A stretch of DNA of 64,000 nt from a bacterium (GCA_018700055.1 JABISL010000042.1:7298-71297), one strand, 5' to 3'. Positions 20,025 through 63,963 are shown, numbered from the stretch's first letter. The notes: generated by a model from the sequence alone, not told the origin. Made by a program: numbers and translations.

Positions 20025-21902
20025 CTATTCAGCCAACTCAACATCATAAAGAATGTCGTCTAATTCATGTCTGTATAGCGGCATGTTGAGTCGTTTTTCA
20101 TCAAGGACATGGCCGATGAATCCAATGGTTCGTCCCAGAACGAAGAATGCATTTAGAGCGCCAGAGTCGATGAGTTGCTCAATTTCTTTGTCCGAATAAT
20201 TAAGGTTTTTCCACATGTCGACTAAAAGAACGCCCACTGCGCCATCTACGTTTAAGATGAGGTTGGGTTTCTTAGATGTCGTTACCTTTTCTACCTCAAG
20301 GGCAAAGTTTAGTGTAAGGGTATCTGGGAAATTGTCCTTAGCGAATTTTTTCAAGCTTTCCACTCGTAAGTCAGGATTTTTGGTGGATTTAATTCGATGT
20401 CCAATCCCAGGAATGGCGAGGCCTTCTTGTTTCATGTAATCCACAAATGCATGTGGGGACATATTCTCGTCTTTGCCATGTTTGAAGTGTTTCGCTGCAC
20501 CATCAATAGCACCACCAAAACGTGGTCCAATGGTTAGGATTCCACTTACTAGTGAGGAAATGAGGTCTTTTCCTGCTCTAGCAGTTACACGCGCATTGTG
20601 TGCACCACTAACAGCTGGACCATGATCGGCAACCGTTTTGATTACTGTTTCGATGAAGTCGCTGGCCCATTTTGGGTAGCGTTTTTTGAACCAAAGGAGT
20701 GCTAAGACATCCCCAATGCTGAACCCAGTATCAGGTGTGGCTACTGAGCTAATAGGGAATCCGGCATAAACCGCTTCTTCGCCACGATCATCGGAGATCG
20801 TACAAATAAAGTTGGTTTGTTTTCTGATTTTGCCACTTTTCTTAGCTGCGGTATAGTCTTCAGGGATTTCAGGAAGTTGCTCGTCTGTTGTGACTGCGTC
20901 AGTTTCTGATTTAGTTGTTTTTGTAGTCACGTCTTCTGAAATTTGATCTTTGATTTGATTATAAACTTCATTAATGAGCTTAGGGAGCTCATTGAATGTG
21001 TCTGGTACTTGAATGCCAGCGTTCCGCATCGCTTTGTTTTTGGCTACAGCGGTTTCAGAGTTGCTGTTAGCTTTGGCCCCAGCGTGTCCGAACTGAACCT
21101 CAGAAGCAAAGTGTGCCGCAACAGTCCCAAGGCTCCATCCGATAATGGGCTTGGTGATTTCGCCGTTCTTAACTGCTTCGATCACATCATACTCATCGGT
21201 ACCACCAACTTCACCCAATAGGATGATATAGCGGACTTTGTCGTTTTTCTCCATCATACGGATGTAATCGATAAATGTGGAGCCTGGGTAACGATCGCCA
21301 CCTACAGCCACGCCTTCGGCCAATCCGTTAGCGTTGATGGATACTATATTAGCTAGCTCATTGAACAATCCGCCGGATCGCGTCACGAGTCCTGCAGATC
21401 CTGGGCGGTGTAGTTTGGTTTTTACAATGTTATCCATTGTTCCACCAATATTTGCGATTTTGAATGAGCCAGGTGTGATGGCTCCAACAGATGACGGTCC
21501 AATTAATAGTTTGCCGGCTTCTTTTGCTTTGATAACCATCGTTCGTGCCAAGCGTTCTGGGATTCCTTCAGCAGTAACCATAATGGTTTTGAGTGATTTG
21601 TATTTAAGTGAATCCATTGTGACATCATAAGCGGTTCTAAATGATGCGAAGTTTAAGAATACATCGGCTTCAGGGAAACGACGAACCGCCTCTTCAGTTG
21701 TTTTTACAACGGGAATAACGACTTCTCTCGGGCCAAAAAAGAACTTTTGGACAGAGGTTTGAGTTGTTGGGTGAACAATCGCTGCGACAGAAGGTGTTTC
21801 TCTACGACAGATATAACCGTAGTCCAACATTTGTTGAATGGCTTTGGTGTTGTTGTTCCAGAATATAGCTTGGGTATCGTTTGTAAATAATTGTGCTGTC
21901 AT
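20025..21902 (-). CDS. aclA: ATP-citrate lyase large subunit (CoA-binding/SucD-like plus citrate-synthase-like domains)
   Basis: 625 aa; phosphohistidine loop QFGHAGA, C-terminal GHRIKS citrate synthase-type motif. Confidence 0.8.
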   Translation of the reverse strand: MTAQLFTNDTQAIFWNNNTKAIQQMLDYGYICRRETPSVAAIVHPTTQTSVQKFFFGPREVVIPVVKTTEEAVRRFPEADVFLNFASFRTAYDVTMDSLKYKSLKTIMVTAEGIPERLARTMVIKAKEAGKLLIGPSSVGAITPGSFKIANIGGTMDNIVKTKLHRPGSAGLVTRSGGLFNELANIVSINANGLAEGVAVGGDRYPGSTFIDYIRMMEKNDKVRYIILLGEVGGTDEYDVIEAVKNGEITKPIIGWSLGTVAAHFASEVQFGHAGAKANSNSETAVAKNKAMRNAGIQVPDTFNELPKLINEVYNQIKDQISEDVTTKTTKSETDAVTTDEQLPEIPEDYTAAKKSGKIRKQTNFICTISDDRGEEAVYAGFPISSVATPDTGFSIGDVLALLWFKKRYPKWASDFIETVIKTVADHGPAVSGAHNARVTARAGKDLISSLVSGILTIGPRFGGAIDGAAKHFKHGKDENMSPHAFVDYMKQEGLAIPGIGHRIKSTKNPDLRVESLKKFAKDNFPDTLTLNFALEVEKVTTSKKPNLILNVDGAVGVLLVDMWKNLNYSDKEIEQLIDSGALNAFFVLGRTIGFIGHVLDEKRLNMPLYRHELDDILYDVELAE

Positions 21903-21911
21903 TGGAATCTC

Positions 21912-23225
21912 CTAGTTATGAGTGTCTTCGTACGAAATACGAACAATGTCAGTAATATGGGTTTCTGGACCGTAGACTTCGATAGGTAAACCGAGTTTTT
22001 TTCGGGCTGCGTTACGAATGTTTTTTAGACCAATCTCGTAGTTAGGACCGCCCCGACGGACATAGATTTTGACGCCTATGGATTTGAGCTTGTCGGCATG
22101 TTCTTCAAAAGCTTTGATAATGCCATTGAAGGTCTTCGCTACATCTGTGAAGTTGGCGATAGCACCGCCAATAAGGAGTACTTTGTCTCGTCCCTGAGGG
22201 TCTTTTTCACGTGTCATCAAATCAATGACTGTGCTGGCATATTGATAAGTCTCTTGCATGCTTGGGTTTCCAGAGTACTCGCCATAGTTAGCTAGCTCTT
22301 TAACGTCCCATGTATCTGCAATGGTATCTGCATAAACCACTGAAGCACCGCCACCCGCTACAAGTGTCCATACTTGACCTTTGGGATTAAGAATCGTGAG
22401 TTTGAGACTAGCACCTGATTTTTCATCGATTTGTTTGATTAGTTTTTCTTCAGGGGTTTGGGCGTCTCGTCCAAATGAATTGGGGAACTCCAATTGGCCC
22501 CATTTCTCATGCATTAAGAATCCAGCTGTATCATCTACTTTGCCAACTAAGTCGAGAAGGTGAACAGTTTGGTTACGAATAATAAATGGGTTGATTTCTA
22601 GATAAGTGAAATGCAAGTCGCGGAAGAAACGGTACAGTCCCGAGATAAAAGTAACGAGGTTATCGTGGTTATCTACTGTATTTGGAAGTCCGTTTGTAAT
22701 CTGTGCGTTTATTTTTTTGTCGGAATCGCCAAGAGGGATTTTTATACTTGTTACGCTGTCCCAGTTTTCTTCAATCTCAACGCCACCTTGTGTAGAGAAG
22801 TGAATTACATCATGGTCGTTTTCTGCTTGTATTGCGACGTAGTATTCTTCCGAAGCTTCGTGAGCCACAAAGGGCTCTACAACGAAATATCGGAGTCGTC
22901 CGGTGTTGCCGTCATGAAGCGTAATGTCTTGCTTGGCTTTTTCGTCAATCCAGTTCGCGGCGGCATCTAACGTGACGTCTCCCGGCTTGGACTGCTTGTA
23001 GAATACTAAGTCGTTTTTACCACGTTTGCCAAAAAGCATGTCGGGTTTGGCGACAAGTGCGGTGTCTTTTAGCCATGACTGATCGTCACTAGCTGTTTGT
23101 AAATCGGTTCCGTTTGTTACTAATACGGATTGAGTAGCGGATTGAAGTGTATCTCCAAAATAGCTATCCCAATGGGTTGTTAAAAGTGCTTTTGCGTCTG
23201 CTTCGCGTATGCCTAGTTGTGCCAT
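21912..23225 (-). CDS. aclB: ATP-citrate lyase small subunit (ATP-grasp, SucC-like)
   Basis: 437 aa; long collinear similarity to the N-terminal third of eukaryotic ACLY (SGASLKLT.LNPKG..WT.VAGGGASVVY.DTI...LANYGEYSG.PS...TY.Y....LMTREK....IGG.IANFT.VA.TF.GI). Confidence 0.8.
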   Translation of the reverse strand: MAQLGIREADAKALLTTHWDSYFGDTLQSATQSVLVTNGTDLQTASDDQSWLKDTALVAKPDMLFGKRGKNDLVFYKQSKPGDVTLDAAANWIDEKAKQDITLHDGNTGRLRYFVVEPFVAHEASEEYYVAIQAENDHDVIHFSTQGGVEIEENWDSVTSIKIPLGDSDKKINAQITNGLPNTVDNHDNLVTFISGLYRFFRDLHFTYLEINPFIIRNQTVHLLDLVGKVDDTAGFLMHEKWGQLEFPNSFGRDAQTPEEKLIKQIDEKSGASLKLTILNPKGQVWTLVAGGGASVVYADTIADTWDVKELANYGEYSGNPSMQETYQYASTVIDLMTREKDPQGRDKVLLIGGAIANFTDVAKTFNGIIKAFEEHADKLKSIGVKIYVRRGGPNYEIGLKNIRNAARKKLGLPIEVYGPETHITDIVRISYEDTHN

Positions 23226-27495: not shown

Positions 27496-27881
27496 TGGTG
27501 GAGGTGAGCGGAGTTGAACCGCTGTCCGAAAAAGCTCAAAAGTGAGCACTACGAGTGTAGTTCTTGATTAATTTAGTAATACTGGACCCCAAGAACAGGG
27601 TGTAGCACCACGAGATACCAAAAAGTTTCGCATAATGAACTGGTATCCCATCATTACACTATCCAGTAAATAACTCTTCTAACTATACTGGCGGACAGCT
27701 AGAGAGGCATCGTTGCTTAATTAAGCAGCGATTGAGTCGCTAAATGAACCGAAGTTCACATAGCTAACGTTAGAAGTAGTTTCTGCAGTTATGTTTTTTA
27801 TGCCTTTTTACGTGGCCTGGCATCTCCACGACTCGCGTTCAACTTCTAAGGAATCTTTCCCGTCGAAACCAAATCACCCCC
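27496..27881 (-). ncRNA. ssrA: tmRNA (transfer-messenger RNA), one-piece
   Basis: 5' GGGGGUGAUUUGGUUUCGACGGG acceptor/D analog; 3' tRNA-like GGUUCAACUCCGC..CCUCCACCA; internal ORF GCA GAA.. encodes tag AETTSNVSYVNFGSFSDSIAA then UAA; terminator-like hairpins downstream at about 27420-27480. Confidence 0.85.
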
Positions 27882-45671: not shown

Positions 45672-46028
<357 letters not shown>

Positions 46029-46594: not shown

Positions 46595-48073
46595 ATGTTA
46601 CACGCGATTGATTGGACAATAATAGTTGCTTATCTGACGATTACCTTCGGACTAGGGTATTCGCTTAAGTCACATATTCATTCGATGAAGGATTTCATTG
46701 GTGCAGGCCAACGCGTAGGTCCTTGGCTAAGTATTGCGACGATGGCAGGGACTGAGACCGGTCTGATTACAATTATGTATAGTGCTGAAAAAGGGTATTT
46801 GGGGGGATTTGCGGCGTTTCATATAGCAGTCGTGGGTGCGGCGGTTCCCTTAATAGTGGGGATGACAGGGTTTATCGTGGCTCGCCTCCGAGAGACTGGG
46901 GTCTTAACGATACCTGAGTATTACAATCTACGGTTTGGAAAAAGTACTCGGGTACTGGGTGGGGTAGTTTTGGTTTTGGCCGGTGTATTAAATATGGGAT
47001 TGTTTCTCAAAGTAGGGGCGATGTTTATTGCAGGAATGATTGGTGTTCCGGCTTCCAGTATTGGGGTAGCCATTATTATGGTTATTCTATTGGTATTGGT
47101 TCTGGGGTATACGATGATGGGTGGAATGATGTCGGTGATTATTACGGATTATCTTCAGTTTGTTTTGTTGTCATTGGGGTTCTTGGTCACAACAGGGTTG
47201 GCGATATGGCAATTGGGGCTGGGTCGGATTTTTTCTACGATATCGATAGAAATGGGGGAGGCCGGCTTTAATCCTTTTATTAGTACCGGTGAGTTTGGCT
47301 TGTCCTATGTGGTTTGGATGATTTTTACCGCTGGATTGGTAAGTTGTGCAATTTGGCCAACAGCAGTGGCTCGAGCGTTAACAACGGATTCCCCTGAGAC
47401 GACTAAGAAACAATATAGATGGGCCTCATTGTCCTTTTTGGTTAGATTTATGGTGCCTTATTTTTGGGGGATCTGTGCATTTGTATTCTTTAAGACGATT
47501 GGACAGGGGCTTTGGACTCAATCATTAACACCGATTATGGCATTGCCAGCGTATTTGTCTCAGTTGCTGCCTATCGGATTAACGGGATTGTTAATGGCAG
47601 CGATGATTGCGGCGTTTATGTCTACACATGATAGTTACTTATTGTGTTGGAGTGCTGTGATCGTGCAGGATATTATTGCTCCCTTAAAAAAGGGGGGATT
47701 GGATGATGCTAAGCGGATTCAATATACGAGGTGGGGAATTCTGGGAATCGGTGTGTGGATCTTGTATTGGGGATTGGTCTATCCGGGAGGCGATGCCATT
47801 TGGGACTATATGGCGGTAACAGGGGCGATCTATTTTACAGGGGCTTTTTCGGTATTGGTTGGTGGACTGTATTGGAAACGGGCGAGTCGTGTGGGTGCCA
47901 ATGCAGCATTAGTATCGGGCTTAGTAGCGATCGTAGGCTTAGCACCTGCTCAGCATTTGTTGGGTGTGAGTTGGGGTAGTGCCAAGGTAGGACTAGTAAC
48001 GGTGTGTCTTTCTATATTAGCGATGATCATTGGTTCGCTAGTTTGGCCTGACTTGAAGGAGTCTGCATTATGA
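46595..48073 (+). CDS. Sodium:solute symporter family (SSS) transporter
   Basis: 492 aa, about 13 TM helices, SSS-family organization. Confidence 0.75.
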   Translation: MLHAIDWTIIVAYLTITFGLGYSLKSHIHSMKDFIGAGQRVGPWLSIATMAGTETGLITIMYSAEKGYLGGFAAFHIAVVGAAVPLIVGMTGFIVARLRETGVLTIPEYYNLRFGKSTRVLGGVVLVLAGVLNMGLFLKVGAMFIAGMIGVPASSIGVAIIMVILLVLVLGYTMMGGMMSVIITDYLQFVLLSLGFLVTTGLAIWQLGLGRIFSTISIEMGEAGFNPFISTGEFGLSYVVWMIFTAGLVSCAIWPTAVARALTTDSPETTKKQYRWASLSFLVRFMVPYFWGICAFVFFKTIGQGLWTQSLTPIMALPAYLSQLLPIGLTGLLMAAMIAAFMSTHDSYLLCWSAVIVQDIIAPLKKGGLDDAKRIQYTRWGILGIGVWILYWGLVYPGGDAIWDYMAVTGAIYFTGAFSVLVGGLYWKRASRVGANAALVSGLVAIVGLAPAQHLLGVSWGSAKVGLVTVCLSILAMIIGSLVWPDLKESAL

Positions 48074-56135: not shown

Positions 56136-56491
56136 CAGCGCTATCCCGAAAGCAGAAAGGAAACTTGGGTGAGGCATTTGCAGCCAAGTATCTTGAGGGG
56201 AAAGGGTATCGAATTATAGATCGGAACTTTTATGCCAAGGGTGGAGAACTTGATATTATTGCAAAGACTAATGATGGGGTTTGGGTGTTTGTAGAGGTCA
56301 AATCATATAAGTCCAATTCACCAATTCACCCTTTAGAGGCAATAACCCCACTTAAGCAACGGCGTATCATTCGGACTGCACAAGTCTACATAGCCACTCG
56401 TATTTATAAAGAAGTGGCTAGTAGATTTGATTGTGTAGTTATCCAAGACGGAGAGGTCACTCATCATCTTGAAAACTGTATTAGTCTTTAA
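56132..56491 (+). CDS. yraN: UPF0102/YraN-family endonuclease-like protein
   Basis: 119 aa; YraN signature (GE..A..YL...GY.I..RN). Confidence 0.7.
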   Translation: MTALSRKQKGNLGEAFAAKYLEGKGYRIIDRNFYAKGGELDIIAKTNDGVWVFVEVKSYKSNSPIHPLEAITPLKQRRIIRTAQVYIATRIYKEVASRFDCVVIQDGEVTHHLENCISL

Positions 56492-56887
56492 GAAGTACCT
56501 TTAGACGGTTTTCTGCACGGATCAAGGATGCTTTTGCACGAGCCGTATCCGTTTCTTTTTTAGGTTTCTTAATGCGATCTTCCGCGCGTTGCTTAGCGGC
56601 TTCAGCGCGTTTTTGATCAATTGTTTTTTTCTCTTCCACAAAAGGGGCCATGATTGTGATGGTCTTTTTTGTGATATGTGCGACACCTTCAGGGACAAAG
56701 TAAGTTGTCTCTGTGGCATTGATGTCACGAGTCATTAACTTGCCAGGCTTAAGAATGACAAGCATTGGGGTGTGAGAAGGGGTTACCCCAATCTCACCGG
56801 TAATACTCATTAACTTAGTGAAGCTAACTGTTTTTTCAACAGCCGTTCCTTCAGGCGTTACTACTTTGAACCCAATCTGACCGGACA

Positions 56888-56888
<1 letters not shown>
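56481..56888 (-). CDS. atpC: ATP synthase F1 epsilon subunit
   Basis: 135 aa; position and sequence typical. Confidence 0.85.
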
Positions 56889-58324
<1,436 letters not shown>

Positions 58325-59191
58325 CTAGTTAAGCGATGCTGCGCCGGCTACAATTTCTGTTAATTCTGTTGTAATCGCCGCTTGCCTGGACCGGTTAAAC
58401 AGTAGGGTTAAATCTTTAATCATTTCTGAAGCGTTATCTGTTGCAGAATCCATTGCTGTCATTCGAGCACCTTCTTCTGCGGCCTTACTTTCTAGTTGTG
58501 CTTGTAACACGATTTGAAAAATTAACTTAGTAATAACCGCTTCTAATACTGCTTCTTTACTAGGTTCATAAATAAAGTCTGCATCGGTAACGGTTTCTGA
58601 AGGCCAATCTTTTAGTTCAAAGGGCAGTAATTGTTTTTCTACTTCTTGAGTAGTAAGTACTGACACAAATTCACTATAAATCAGTGTAATCTTTCCATAT
58701 GCGCCATTAATGTAATCAGTGACTAATGGGGCAACAATTTTTTCAATAGCGGATTCAGTAATTAGATCACCTGCAAGTCCGATAATAGAGTCTCTGATTG
58801 TTGCATTCTCATTTTTGAGTTGCTGGTTCCCTTTGTTTCCAATCAGAATCAAGTCAATATCGGTGTCTTTTTTATCAGCAATGACCCGTTTGGCTTTTTT
58901 GATGATGTTGCTATTAAATCCACCACAAAGACCGCGGTCACCAGTAATCAAAATAATCGCTTCTTTGGTGCCTCGTCCCGGCTCAAGTAAAGAAGGTAAG
59001 TTGTTCGGAGATAATCGCGCTGATAAATCATTGATCATATTTCCGAGTGCATCTCCGTATAACTTCGCTTTTGTAACGCGCTCTTGAGCACGTCTGAACT
59101 TCGAAGCCGCTACCATTTTCATCGCCGAAGTGATTTTTTTGGTTTTTTTAACGGATACGATGCGTTGTTTAACTTCGCGTAAGTTAGCCAT
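58325..59191 (-). CDS. atpG: ATP synthase F1 gamma subunit
   Basis: 288 aa. Confidence 0.9.
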   Translation of the reverse strand: MANLREVKQRIVSVKKTKKITSAMKMVAASKFRRAQERVTKAKLYGDALGNMINDLSARLSPNNLPSLLEPGRGTKEAIILITGDRGLCGGFNSNIIKKAKRVIADKKDTDIDLILIGNKGNQQLKNENATIRDSIIGLAGDLITESAIEKIVAPLVTDYINGAYGKITLIYSEFVSVLTTQEVEKQLLPFELKDWPSETVTDADFIYEPSKEAVLEAVITKLIFQIVLQAQLESKAAEEGARMTAMDSATDNASEMIKDLTLLFNRSRQAAITTELTEIVAGAASLN

Positions 59192-59206
59192 TGGTATCTA
59201 TAATCC

Positions 59207-60715
59207 TTAGTCTACAAACAGTTTCTGGATGTCTTTGATGACCTTTTCCAGTGTGGCTGATATGTCGTCGGATAGTTTCTTTTCAGATTCAATTTGGTCT
59301 AGAAGGGCACTGTGTTCCATGTTTAGTACAGAGTGTAGCTCTTTTTCGAACTCGCGAACCTTGTTAACAGGGACTTCATCAAGAAGGCCTTTAACTGTTG
59401 CATATACAATTGCGATCTGAAGTGAAATACGAAGCGGTGTATATTGGTTTTGTTTCAGAATCTCAATGAGACGCTTTCCACGTTCCAATTGGCTTAATGT
59501 ACTCTTGTCTAAATCTGATCCAAATTGAGCAAAGGCTTCAATTTCCCAGTACTGAGATAGATCAAGTCTCAAACTACCAGCGACTTGTTTCGTCGCTTTG
59601 ATCTGAGCGTTGCCACCTACACGAGATACTGAAATACCAGGGTTAACCGCTGGTTTAATACCAGAGTTATATAGATCTGATTCTAAGTAGATTTGTCCAT
59701 CTGTAATAGAGATAACGTTAGTAGGGATGTAAGCAGATACATCACCGGCTTGTGTTTCAATGATTGGAAGCGCTGTAATAGATCCGCCACCTTTTTCATC
59801 AGAATACTTAAGCGCACGCTCAAGAAGTCTGGAGTGGAGATAGAATACATCTCCAGGGAATGCTTCACGTCCAGGAGGACGCTTCATTAGTAGTGATAAT
59901 TGACGGTAAGCAACAGCGTGCTTGGAAAGGTCATCATAAACGACCAATACATGTTTGCCGGCTTCTGCAAATTCTTCTGCAATTGCACATGCGGAGTAAG
60001 GTGCCATGTACTGCAATGTTGCAGAATCAGATGCGGATGCAGAGACAACTACTGTGAAGTCCATTGCGCCGTATTCTTTTAATGTTTCTACAACCTGAGC
60101 TGTAGATGATTTCTTTTGGCCAATTGCAACGTATACACAAATAACGTCACTGCCTTTTTGATTAATAATAGTGTCGATCGCAATCGCAGACTTACCAGTC
60201 TTACGGTCGCCAATAATCAACTCACGTTGACCACGTCCGATAGGAATCATCATATCGATCGCTTTAATTCCTGTTTGCATTGGCTCAGTAACAGGCTGTC
60301 TGTCACATACGCCAGCGGCTACCTTTTCAATTTGGCGAGTCGCTGTTGTTTTGATTGGGCCAGCACCATCGATGCCTTGTCCTAAAGGATCAACTACGCG
60401 TCCGATCATAGCTTCCCCAACAGGGATACTCATTACTTTTCCTGTACGCTCTACAGTATCGCCTTCTTTTACTAATTCGGCGTTACCAAGGATTACTACT
60501 CCAACGTTGTCTTCTTCCAAGTTGAATACCATACCAATAACGTTTTTAGGGAAAGAGACCATTTCCCCGGCCATGACATTTTCTAGTCCGAATACACGGG
60601 CAATACTGTCACCAACTTGAAGGACGGTACCGACTTCTTTAACATCTACTTTCCAGTCGATGTTTTCGATTTCTTTTTCTAATATTGCTGTGATTTCTTC
60701 GGGTTTAATACTCAT
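59207..60715 (-). CDS. atpA: ATP synthase F1 alpha subunit
   Basis: 502 aa; Walker A GDRKTGKS. Confidence 0.95.
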
Positions 60716-60726
60716 GGTAGGTCTCC

Positions 60727-61269
60727 TTAATTCTTAGTAGATAGACGGGCTTTAAATTGACGAAGGGACTGCTGAACAGACCCATCGTATACGGTATTGT
60801 CTATTGTGGCCTTGAATCCACCGATTAAGTCGGCGTCAATTCCAAATGATACACGTAGTTTTTTATCACTTCTAAGCTGAAGTTCTTGAACAATCTTTTG
60901 CTGTGTAGTTTCACTCACTTCAGAAGCGGTTAGAATGGTCGTTTCCGCTGTATTATGGAAGTTAAGTAATGCACGTTTAGCAGTTGTTTGTATTTGCGGT
61001 AACAAATGTAATCGTTTCTTTTGAATTAGCACACGGAAGAAATTATTCAGGTGTTTGTTTTTGCTGAACTTTTCTACAGCAGAAATAAGAATAGATAAAC
61101 GATCCTTTTCAGATGTCATTGGGCTTTGCAAAGTCGCCCAAACGTTTTCATTATTCATTATTGCTTGGCTAGCATCACCTAAAGCAGAAACCACCTTATC
61201 GGTAGTCTTGTTGTCGAGGTTAGCGATTAATGCGTTGGTATATCGTTCTGCTAGGGTGCTATCACTCAT
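60727..61269 (-). CDS. atpH: ATP synthase F1 delta (OSCP) subunit
   Basis: 180 aa. Confidence 0.8.
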
Positions 61270-61751
61270 TAGTTTTTTATCCGTTCCAAATAATCTTGGA
61301 TTAATCCGGTTTGTTTGTCTTTATCAAGGGTTTCTTTTAGGACTTTTTCTGTAAGTTGAATCGTTAGAGTAGCGGCTTCACTTGTTAAAGTTTGCTTCGC
61401 GCGCTGAATGTCTTGGTCGATCTCTTTCTTAGCGTTCTGAACCAATTGCTTGGACTCTTCTCTGCTTTTGCTGATTGCGATATCGCGTTCCGCTTTAGCA
61501 GAGTCTTCTGCTTTGGATCTTATGTCCTTCGCTTCAAGATGTGCTTTTTTAAGCAGTTCTTTGTGCTCAGTTAAGATTCGTTCAGATTCATTGCGACTCG
61601 ACTCTGATTCTGCGATATTATTCTTGATTGAATCCGCACGGTTTTTAAGGAAGTCCGAAAGGGGCTTCGATAAAAAACGCTTCAACAACCAGAACAATAC
61701 TGCAAAGTTGATGATTTGGAATAATATTTCGTAGAGATTGATGGAAATCAC
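61269..61751 (-). CDS. atpF: ATP synthase Fo b subunit
   Basis: 160 aa; N-terminal TM helix then long charged helix. Confidence 0.8.
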   Translation of the reverse strand: MISINLYEILFQIINFAVLFWLLKRFLSKPLSDFLKNRADSIKNNIAESESSRNESERILTEHKELLKKAHLEAKDIRSKAEDSAKAERDIAISKSREESKQLVQNAKKEIDQDIQRAKQTLTSEAATLTIQLTEKVLKETLDKDKQTGLIQDYLERIKN

Positions 61752-62022: not shown

Positions 62023-62062
62023 GTGAAATCCTCCTAAGAATTTAAGTTCAAAATTATATCAG

Positions 62063-62770
62063 TTACACTACAAATATCAAGATAAGCGCGACGACCAATG
62101 CATAGATATCAGTGGTCTCCGTAATCGCTTGTCCGATAATCATAGTTCTGGTTAATAACCCCATGTTTTGGGGGTCACGTCCTACTGCGAGATTGGCATT
62201 CTTGGCAACAAGGCCGTCACCAATTCCTGGCCCAATCGCTCCGAATCCCATTGCGATTCCACCGCCAAGTATGGCGAAGATCTTAATGAAAGAGTATTCA
62301 GGGTTAAGTGTAATCAATATCAGTGCCACTGTAAGAGCAAAAATAGTAGAGGTCTGAGTTACAGCTTGTCCGATAATCATCTGAACGGTTAATGCATCCG
62401 CATTTTCAGGGTTGCGACCAATGCCTTCCATGCATGACCCACCAGGCAGACCTGCACCAAATCCAGAACCAATAGTTCCGCATCCAATCGCAATTCCGGC
62501 TGCTATATAAGTGATGCCCTTCATAAAGGTTGTTCCACCGGCGCCGAAGATTAAGATTAGTGCAATTACCAATGCGAAAATAGCGGCTGTTTCTGTAACC
62601 GCTTGCCCGATAATCATAATACGGAGTGTTTTTTGTGAGGCACCAGGCTGACGGCCTAGAGATTCAGCTGCCTTCATGGCAATATAACCTTCTCCAACGG
62701 CAGATCCGATGGATCCAAGTCCGATAGCTAATCCAGCTCCAAGCATTGCGCAAATTGTGACGAATTCCAT
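62063..62770 (-). CDS. atpE: ATP synthase Fo c subunit, triplicated fusion (three c hairpins, 6 TM helices); middle hairpin has Gln in place of the ion-binding Glu
   Basis: 235 aa. Three tandem c-type repeats: helix-2 sequences IGQAVTETAAIFAL, IGQAVTQTSTIFAL and IGQAITETTDIYAL; polar loops RQPGA, RNPEN, RDPQN. Third repeat nearly identical to the single c subunit. Confidence 0.85.
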   Translation of the reverse strand: MEFVTICAMLGAGLAIGLGSIGSAVGEGYIAMKAAESLGRQPGASQKTLRIMIIGQAVTETAAIFALVIALILIFGAGGTTFMKGITYIAAGIAIGCGTIGSGFGAGLPGGSCMEGIGRNPENADALTVQMIIGQAVTQTSTIFALTVALILITLNPEYSFIKIFAILGGGIAMGFGAIGPGIGDGLVAKNANLAVGRDPQNMGLLTRTMIIGQAITETTDIYALVVALILIFVV

Positions 62771-63636: not shown

Positions 63637-63963
63637 TTAAATATCCTTGGATTTTAGTCTTTTTTTACTTCTCATAAACACAGCTACAATAGCTGCGTAC
63701 TGGAAGGTGAATAAGCTTAACAGAATTACCCACAGATTGAAATACTGATTGAGCCTAATTCCGAGTATCATCGGAATAGCATAAATACCCATGCGTGCGA
63801 TATAGCCGATAAAAGTAACGCTTTTGCTTTGTTGAGTCAATACTGTAACCTGTGTTTTGACCAGGTTTTTGAAGCCCCAATAGCTAAAAAATACACCGAG
63901 AATTACGGATAAAATGATTGTGTACTGTTCTAATAGAAAAGCGATAATACTAATCGTCATCAC
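63637..63963 (-). CDS. AtpI/AtpZ-like small membrane protein at head of atp operon
   Basis: 108 aa, 3-4 TM helices, upstream of atpB. Confidence 0.45.
   Translation of the reverse strand: MMTISIIAFLLEQYTIILSVILGVFFSYWGFKNLVKTQVTVLTQQSKSVTFIGYIARMGIYAIPMILGIRLNQYFNLWVILLSLFTFQYAAIVAVFMRSKKRLKSKDI

Follow-up and report, generated by a model that had tools for sequence, protein, structure and literature searches.

A 64,000-nt stretch of bacterial DNA (hereafter, the window) carries an additional open reading frame beside the ordinary c-subunit gene of an ATP synthase operon. This frame is a genuine, strongly conserved gene ('atpE1') for a six-helix c subunit of the canonical F1Fo enzyme of a marine bacterium belonging to Candidatus Marinamargulisbacteria. 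It encodes three fused c hairpins, and the middle one is devoid of the ion-binding carboxylate. With a probability of roughly 0.6, we read the product as a true three-hairpin c that joins the single-hairpin c in one heteromeric Na+ ring, where each fused subunit would take one site out of the ring. That the two kinds of subunit co-assemble, that few fused copies enter a ring, that the enzyme is coupled to Na+, and that the stoichiometry changes is what we infer from the sequences.

The first-pass annotation had described three complete c repeats in the 235-aa frame, and both Pfam and the alignments bore this out. ATP-synt_C matched three stretches of the protein (E = 5.8e-43; score 145 bits, cut-off 24), and TIGR01260 (F-type subunit c) gave 109 bits against a cut-off of 44. 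The three hairpins and the single c were aligned with 25 invariant columns and an unshifted register; the identities of the segments to hairpin 1 fell between 46 and 51%. The repeat boundaries matched intact hairpins in the alignment as well as in an AlphaFold2 model (28 homologues), which predicted six long helices arranged in three hairpins (pLDDT 93.4, pTM 0.88). The Glu residues claimed for repeats 1 and 3 and the Gln claimed for repeat 2 were read from the sequence as E60, E218, and Q139, and every quoted motif was present. Each hairpin fits the F-type c pattern of a Gly-rich inner helix and a polar R-x-P loop; the loops of hairpins 1, 2, and 3 are GRQPGA, GRNPEN, and GRDPQN. Helix 2 is AVTETAA in hairpin 1, AVTQTST in hairpin 2, where the carboxylate is absent, and AITETTD in hairpin 3. 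The hairpins are joined by linkers of 6–8 residues, into which stop and start signals would not fit. In the DNA, four in-register copies (the three hairpins and the single c) follow each other with spacings of 237, 237, and 292 nt. Because these copies are only 64–75% identical, the triplication is old, neither recent nor made by the assembly. The coordinates are collected in Table 1, where residues 32, 35, 63, 65, 66, 67, 68, and 70, as in the text, follow the I. tartaricus numbering.

Table 1. Location of the c-subunit genes, the surrounding ATP synthase operon, and other features of the window.
Feature	Coordinates	Strand	Details
Fused three-hairpin c gene	62063..62770	-	235 aa, ATG start, six TM helices
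Hairpin 1 (residues 1-75)	62546..62770	-	E32, E65, T66, A67, F70
Hairpin 2 (residues 76-154), dead site	62309..62545	-	A32, P35, Q65, T66, S67, F70
Hairpin 3 (residues 155-235)	62066..62308	-	D32, E65, T66, T67, D68, Y70
Codon of E60 (hairpin 1)	62591-62593	-	carboxylate
Codon of Q139 (hairpin 2)	62354-62356	-	CAG
Codon of E218 (hairpin 3)	62117-62119	-	carboxylate
Codon of D221 (hairpin 3)	62108-62110	-	extra Asp68
Single-hairpin c, 83 aa	61771..62022	-	one ATP-synt_C (Pfam); E32/E65/T66/T67/Y70
Shine-Dalgarno AGGAGG, perfect	62030..62035	-	7 nt ahead of the single-c start
atpB, subunit a, 285 aa	62770..63627	-	stator Arg in SHSFRLFGN
atpI-like	63637..63963	-	ATP-synt_I match weak, 20.4 bits, under the 25.1 cut-off
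b	61269-61751	-	
delta/OSCP	60727-61269	-	
alpha	59207-60715	-	
gamma	58325-59191	-	
beta	56888-58303	-	
epsilon	56481-56888	-	
Operon from b to epsilon	56481..61751	-	
Sodium:solute symporter	46595-48073	+	
RNase P RNA class A	45673-46026	-	
UPF0182 membrane protein, 904 aa	29356-32070	-	
tmRNA	27496-27881	-	tag AETTSNVSYVNFGSFSDSIAA
ATP-citrate lyase-like adjacent gene pair	20025-23225	-	Citrate_synth_N + Citrate_bind; Ligase_CoA + Citrate_synt

The order of the genes in the window is atpI-like, a, fused c, single c, b, delta, alpha, gamma, beta, and epsilon. The normal atpE reported earlier was located directly downstream of the fused gene in the direction of transcription. The fused c is encoded between atpB and atpF of an atpIBEFHAGDC operon, which is the placement of an F-type subunit. 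V/A-type membership was rejected, as the models of the K subunit stayed below their cut-offs (NF004913, 66.8 against 211 bits; NF011483, 64.2 against 188) and the operon encodes F-type a, b, delta, alpha, gamma, beta, and epsilon subunits. Assignment to the N-ATPases was likewise discarded: even with three domains summed, TIGR03322 reached 124.7 bits against a cut-off of 130.85, the gene order is canonical (not atpDCQRBEFAG), and a gene for OSCP/delta is present. Elsewhere, the window holds four tRNA genes (two for Met, one each for Lys and Ala). It also holds a gene pair resembling ATP-citrate lyase, an enzyme that marks the reductive TCA cycle, although the lineage has been described as having no CO2 fixation pathways.

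A search of related genomes, which the first-pass annotation had suggested, found the triple-c gene across relatives mostly labelled Candidatus Marinamargulisbacteria. The identical 235-aa protein was found on 8 contigs from different projects. The best 120 database hits included 84 three-hairpin proteins of 227–240 aa with 70–82% identity, several of them named Candidatus Marinamargulisbacteria, and all 84 had the E/Q/E pattern. They came from ENA, JGI, NCBI, Tara, and single-cell genomes, and every ORF was uninterrupted. We then scanned one genome per species, which gave 24 related loci (L008–L031, mostly with the same label), and derived the gene order from ORF calling and HMM annotation. 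All 24 loci begin with atpI/a followed by the fused gene, with subunit a uncalled in L019. The fused gene is followed by the single c and b in 22 of them and in three other assemblies of the window's own gene; of the incomplete pair, L021 ends inside the fused gene, and in L011 the two c ORF calls overlap. Gln occupies the carboxylate position of hairpin 2 in 23 of the 24 loci. Four loci with a Marinamargulisbacteria-type operon (L016, L020, L025, and L029) are labelled Rickettsiales, Actinomycetota, or Alteromonas, probably owing to mislabelling or mis-binning.

Pairwise dN/dS values for hairpins 1, 2, and 3 were 0.042, 0.040, and 0.052, ratios that are approximate since dS is near saturation, and the within-position identities were 74, 74, and 77%. 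As both measures are alike in all hairpins, the carboxylate-less hairpin 2 is, by sequence divergence, as constrained as hairpins 1 and 3. We rejected a pseudogenised middle hairpin on the same grounds. The codon for Gln (CAG) is one transversion away from a Glu codon (GAG), yet Gln has been retained. Across the family, hairpin 3 is the most similar to the single c (58% mean identity).

To define the wider family, we searched all 1.84 billion cluster representatives, which returned 377 proteins at E values up to 1e-10. The best 150 of the 377 consisted of 48 three-hairpin, 69 four-hairpin, 26 two-hairpin, and 4 five-hairpin proteins, and one each with 6, 7, and 13 hairpins. Fused c proteins of 2 to 13 hairpins, as predicted from such sequences, are common in metagenomes. 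The Desulfobacterales (e.g., Desulfosarcina ovata DSCOOX_33710 and Desulfatitalea sp.) have four-hairpin forms with the patterns E-Q-Q-E and E-Q-E-E and five-hairpin forms with E-Q-Q-Q-E or E-Q-Q-Q-Q, annotated just 'ATP synthase F0 subunit C' or 'hypothetical'. As in the window, a is followed by a fused c, a single c, and b, and derived residues recur position by position: A67/F70 in hairpin 1, P35/F70 in those hairpins that have Gln, and a canonical set in the final hairpin. Their single c is 65–68% identical to that of the window, and their hairpins gave position-specific profile scores against the window family. In contrast to the window, they have more internal dead hairpins, Fo genes apart from F1, two b genes, and a shorter subunit a. 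The window's subunit a exceeds theirs by about 60 residues, mainly through an insertion of about 50 residues after TM2. This insertion was found in all Marinamargulisbacteria loci and is clade-specific; the insertion that a Planctomycetota relative carries at this position is unrelated.

Other relatives varied both in the number of hairpins and in the pattern of sites. A Desulfobacteraceae MAG (L032) encodes a three-hairpin E-Q-E form with the same GIGDG in hairpin 3 as the window family, a Planctomycetota MAG (L035) has E-Q-Q, and SI034_bin25 (L033) has a two-hairpin E-G form. Two relatives with the same architecture retain all three carboxylates (E-E-E): L023:1605-2318 from a Lake Mendota MAG and L049:7001-7708 from a Margulisiibacteriota MAG (P0133). 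By these forms, the fusion preceded site loss or can exist without it. L023 is of freshwater origin, unlike the marine E-Q-E forms, and the loss of the site may be linked to salinity. Taken together, the sequences, short as they are, point to one old fused ancestor, with later gain or loss of internal hairpins and lateral spread, convergence being a possible alternative. It is conceivable, at somewhat less than even odds, that these proteins form a large, apparently undescribed F-type family with fused c subunits of 2–5 hairpins (7 and 13 in candidate-phyla bacteria) and programmed dead sites, in which the 3-, 4-, and 5-hairpin forms of Marinamargulisbacteria and Desulfobacterales arose only once and internal dead hairpins were duplicated later.

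Several loci at the margins of this search had unusual arrangements. In the F-type operon of L048:7001-12242 (ENA ERZ650153 NODE_54), a 968-aa c with 13 hairpins, all with Glu, is followed by a, a second c (448 aa), b, alpha, gamma, and beta; P0207, the 447-aa representative of the second c, has 6 hairpins. To our knowledge, a 13-hairpin 'monomeric rotor' has been known only from the archaeon Methanopyrus kandleri. L047:7001-8575 (Candidatus Gracilibacteria GN02-872) has one 524-aa, 7-hairpin c before a in an F-type operon. Translation with table 11 failed for both L047 and L048, suggesting an alternative genetic code. A distant four-hairpin E-Q-E-D family (about 60 cluster representatives among the best 150, e.g., P0195) shows approximately 30% identity at a length of about 318 aa. 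In L050:1821-3606, on a short contig, such a gene directly follows a and precedes a 262-aa gene that has no recorded Pfam annotation and is not a single c.

The ion-binding residues of the four hairpins encoded in the window were compared with those of known Na+ rings. The Na+ ligands in the F. nucleatum ring are E32 and E65 from one subunit, S66 O-gamma and V63 O from the adjacent subunit, and a water molecule held by T67; Y70 and S66 act as hydrogen-bond donors to E65 (PMC3692424). The single c of the window has a complete two-carboxylate Na+ ligand set (E32, E65, T66, T67, Y70), and each of its four best solved relatives (A. woodii c1 and c2, F. nucleatum, and I. tartaricus) comes from a Na+ ring. 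It most likely has a Na+-type site by its ligand set, and we predict that it binds Na+. Measured against the full set (Q/E32, E65, S/T66, T67, Y70), hairpin 1 is partial (A67, F70), hairpin 2 does not have the set, and hairpin 3 is partial, having D32 and receiving T66, S67, and F70 from the neighbouring hairpin 2. Hairpin 3 also carries an extra Asp at position 68 (D221 in the motif ETTDIY), one turn beyond the carboxylate. This Asp is invariant in 84/84 Marinamargulisbacteria proteins and missing from L023, L030, and the Desulfobacterales forms; Gly stands at this position in known Na+ rings.

The ligands missing from hairpin 1 (A67, F70) and hairpin 2 (F70) would also suit a proton-coupled enzyme, in which the polar residues near the carboxylate would confer no Na+ use in vivo. 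Two-carboxylate sites can indeed shift towards H+, as in M. acetivorans (PMC3692424). However, the single c, presumably the majority subunit, has every F. nucleatum Na+ ligand, and the marine habitat, the Na+-NQR reported for the clade, and the sodium:solute symporter in the window also speak against proton coupling, which we consider unlikely. Marinamargulisbacteria were predicted to be aerobic heterotrophs, with Na+-NQR and an aerobic chain (bioRxiv 10.1101/328856). Together with the symporter, these reports make a sodium economy plausible.

The orientation of the sites was approached through covariation among the 150 cluster representatives. Tyr70 was present in hairpin i in only 2 of 170 cases when hairpin i+1 was dead, and in 33 of 185 when it was live (odds ratio 18, p = 3e-8, the p value being only indicative given the relatedness of the proteins). 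The reverse pairing of Tyr70 with a dead or live neighbour showed no association in the same set. T/S67 gave no clean signal as a directional marker across the cluster representatives, probably because many of them are H+-type. The covariation suggests that Y70 of hairpin i serves the carboxylate of hairpin i+1. The 4- and 5-hairpin c proteins fit this logic, and so does A. woodii c1, where F70 in hairpin 1 stands ahead of the dead hairpin 2. In the window, the degenerate face of hairpin 1 (A67/F70) can be read as looking onto the dead hairpin 2, with the hairpin's own carboxylates kept. By the same pattern, the intact T66/T67/Y70 face of hairpin 3 must look onto the live carboxylate of the next subunit in the ring. 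The site of hairpin 3 itself seems atypical (D32, no Tyr provided by hairpin 2, the extra D68), and its function is not assured.

These features can be accommodated by a mixed rotor. One or a few fused subunits would assemble with several single c subunits into one heteromeric Na+-binding ring. Hairpins 1 and 3 would each provide one carboxylate site, and hairpin 2 (A32, P35, Q65) would fill a ring position and carry no ion; the fused subunit would then span three positions and carry two ions. A ring of N hairpins with k fused subunits would have N-k sites and pass (N-k)/3 ions per ATP, extending the principle of the A. woodii c1(c2/3)9 ring from two to three hairpins. As arithmetic on an assumed ring size of 11 hairpins, 1, 2, or 3 fused subunits would leave 10, 9, or 8 sites, corresponding to 3.3, 3.0, or 2.7 Na+ per ATP. 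A mixed ring is supported by the co-occurrence of the fused and single c genes in every sufficiently long locus and by the neighbour-serving face (Y70) kept by hairpin 3.

The translation signals bear on the proportion of the two subunits, with the strength of the Shine-Dalgarno sequence and gene spacing being rough guides to protein stoichiometry and a weak proxy for dosage. The start codon of the fused gene overlaps the atpB stop (TAATG), leaving a gap of -1 nt here and a median of about 9 nt across the loci, and the spacer ahead of the single c has a median of about 40 nt. The predicted anti-SD pairing in the window is -10.2 kcal/mol for the single c vs -3.9 kcal/mol for the fused gene, and the means over 31 loci are -10.3 and -5.7 kcal/mol. 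A fused gene that abuts atpB with a weak Shine-Dalgarno sequence, beside a single c with its own spacer and a near-perfect one, supports few fused and many single c subunits. A near-consensus sigma70-like site (62080..62053 on the minus strand; TTGATA, 16 nt, TGaTATAAT; 11/12, with an extended -10) extends over the final codons of the fused gene and the spacer that precedes the single c. The motif was absent from the related loci, where the spacers are 15–80 nt. An internal promoter for the single c was therefore rejected, and the motif is treated as probably due to chance.

Alternatively, the fused subunit may form a homo-oligomeric ring of its own, e.g., 4 x 3 = 12 hairpins with 8 sites, the single c making an alternative ring, so that the cell would have two interchangeable rotors. 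Fused c genes with no adjacent single c do exist (7 hairpins in L047, 4 in L050), and all-fused rings probably exist in nature on this account. A ring of this kind has been proposed for the triplicated proteolipid of Methanocaldococcus jannaschii. Among archaeal enzymes, c subunits of 2, 3, and 13 hairpins have been described (PMC9171764). In the relatives of the window, however, each of the 22 loci of sufficient length has the two c genes side by side in one operon, and a conserved separate promoter was not found in the related loci. The ribosome-binding site of the fused gene is the weaker of the two, which is the wrong way round for filling a ring alone. Furthermore, the closest solved Na+ F-type rings (I. 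tartaricus, F. nucleatum, and A. woodii) have 11 hairpins and cannot be tiled by three-hairpin units. We regard a separate fused ring as rather improbable here.

The fusion could also be mainly structural, nucleating ring assembly or fixing ring size, with the dead site as a tolerated by-product. The equal constraint on all three hairpins is in line with this view, as are the E-E-E versions (L023; P0133 in L049), which still keep the P35 and F70 features. Since these sister forms have the same fused architecture, the sequences imply that the fusion must have a value apart from site loss. Nevertheless, Q was found in 84/84 proteins and 23/24 loci despite being one transversion from E, and E has likewise given way to Q in most of the 4- and 5-hairpin relatives and, independently, in A. 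woodii c1. This retention and recurrence argue for selection on the loss itself. A purely structural role is accordingly quite unlikely in our estimate; a structural contribution is compatible with the mixed Na+ ring and does not exclude it. An artefact, be it three atpE genes joined by a sequencing or assembly error, for which the first-pass annotation had allowed, or a decaying pseudogene, was rejected and can practically be dismissed, given the identical protein on 8 contigs, more than 80 homologues at 70–82% identity in many independent assemblies (single-cell genomes included) with none interrupted, linkers of 6–8 residues, and a dN/dS of about 0.04.

The number of ion sites in the c-ring sets the ions per ATP, a basic bioenergetic exchange rate. 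We know of only one family of bacterial F-type enzymes (A. woodii, C. aceticum) in which this ratio is lowered by a fused, partly dead c, and this lowering has been interpreted as adaptive for organisms living at the thermodynamic limit. Hybrid rotors containing a fused c with a dead site are an established principle; the novelty lies in finding three hairpins with two sites in an F-type enzyme, in the host of this enzyme, and in the graded series of 3, 4, and 5 hairpins. Homologues of the protein are already public, named only 'ATP synthase F0 subunit C'. In the full-text literature, we found no description of an F-type c with three or more hairpins, although an earlier mention is possible, and no account of the ATP synthase of Marinamargulisbacteria, an enzyme that bioRxiv 10.1101/328856 does not discuss. 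The literature search also returned no paper on the Desulfobacterales 4-/5-hairpin c. According to a 2026 paper, which refers to Brandt and Mueller 2015, the genomes of Desulfatiglandales contain between two and four copies of atpE.

The three-hairpin, two-site c, strictly conserved in a widespread marine class predicted to be aerobic, would extend the principle, as would its 4- and 5-hairpin relatives in sulfate reducers. Fewer ions per ATP has hitherto been explained for energy-starved anaerobes, unlike which the present host is predicted to be aerobic. One may ask what a seawater organism that has Na+-NQR would gain from spending fewer Na+ on each ATP. If the fused c proteins do form one large family with programmed dead sites, graded lowering of the ion/ATP ratio by fused c subunits would be a widespread bacterial strategy, reaching beyond energy-starved acetogens or archaea and operating in an abundant aerobic marine lineage. 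The family would offer a natural series for studying the passage of dead positions at the a-subunit interface, with one in the 3-hairpin, two in the 4-hairpin, and three or four in the 5-hairpin forms. The operon is compact and could be expressed in E. coli DK8, as for A. woodii.

The resemblance to A. woodii c1 proposed by the first-pass annotation held for sequence and fold, and reflects parallel evolution, not shared descent. The best match among solved sequences was 4BEM_J (A. woodii c1, E = 1e-23), followed by A. woodii c2, F. nucleatum c, and I. tartaricus c. 4BEM_J was also the top Foldseek match (rmsd 1.5 Å over 158 columns), with four-helix V-type proteolipids next; none of the Foldseek matches was a solved chain spanning all three hairpins. 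The A. woodii c1(c2/3)9 ring has 11 hairpins, 10 sites, and a ratio of 3.3 Na+/ATP. In this hybrid ring, nine one-hairpin c subunits are combined with one two-hairpin c1 that has a single Na+ site (PMC9171764). Hairpin 1 of c1 keeps Q...ET, and hairpin 2 has Q...QT (PMC7911925; also visible in our alignments). Like the window, the F/V-hybrid rotors of A. woodii and Clostridium aceticum have the fused c encoded between atpB and a single-hairpin c in an F-type operon, Gln in place of Glu in one hairpin, and Na+-type relatives. The window protein, in contrast, has three hairpins (six helices) and two live sites vs two hairpins and one site, an internal vs a C-terminal dead hairpin, and Glu or Asp vs Gln as the helix-1 ligand; its host is a predicted aerobic marine heterotroph vs an energy-limited acetogen. 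The c1 hairpins are 66–70% identical to A. woodii's own c2 and 35–42% to hairpins of the window family, and they gave no position-specific signal against its positional profiles. Orthology was rejected on the closeness to c2, the lack of a profile signal, and the different position of the dead hairpin. Judged by these comparisons, A. woodii c1 is a parallel invention of independent origin.

Two further systems resemble the window in part. The triplicated A1Ao proteolipid (K subunit) of M. jannaschii, which we take to have six helices and two carboxylates, likewise combines three fused hairpins with only two ion-carrying carboxylates; however, it belongs to an A-type enzyme and makes up the ring alone, whereas the window has an F-type operon and a separate single c. 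Archaeal c subunits with 1, 2, 3, or 13 hairpins have been described (PMC9171764). F. nucleatum c11 (PDB 3ZK1; PMC3692424) shares E32 and E65 with the single c and hairpin 1 of the window, and T67, Y70, and the two-carboxylate site with the single c, the window having T66 where F. nucleatum has S66. The F. nucleatum ring is homomeric and built of single hairpins, whereas the window encodes a fused c beside the single one.
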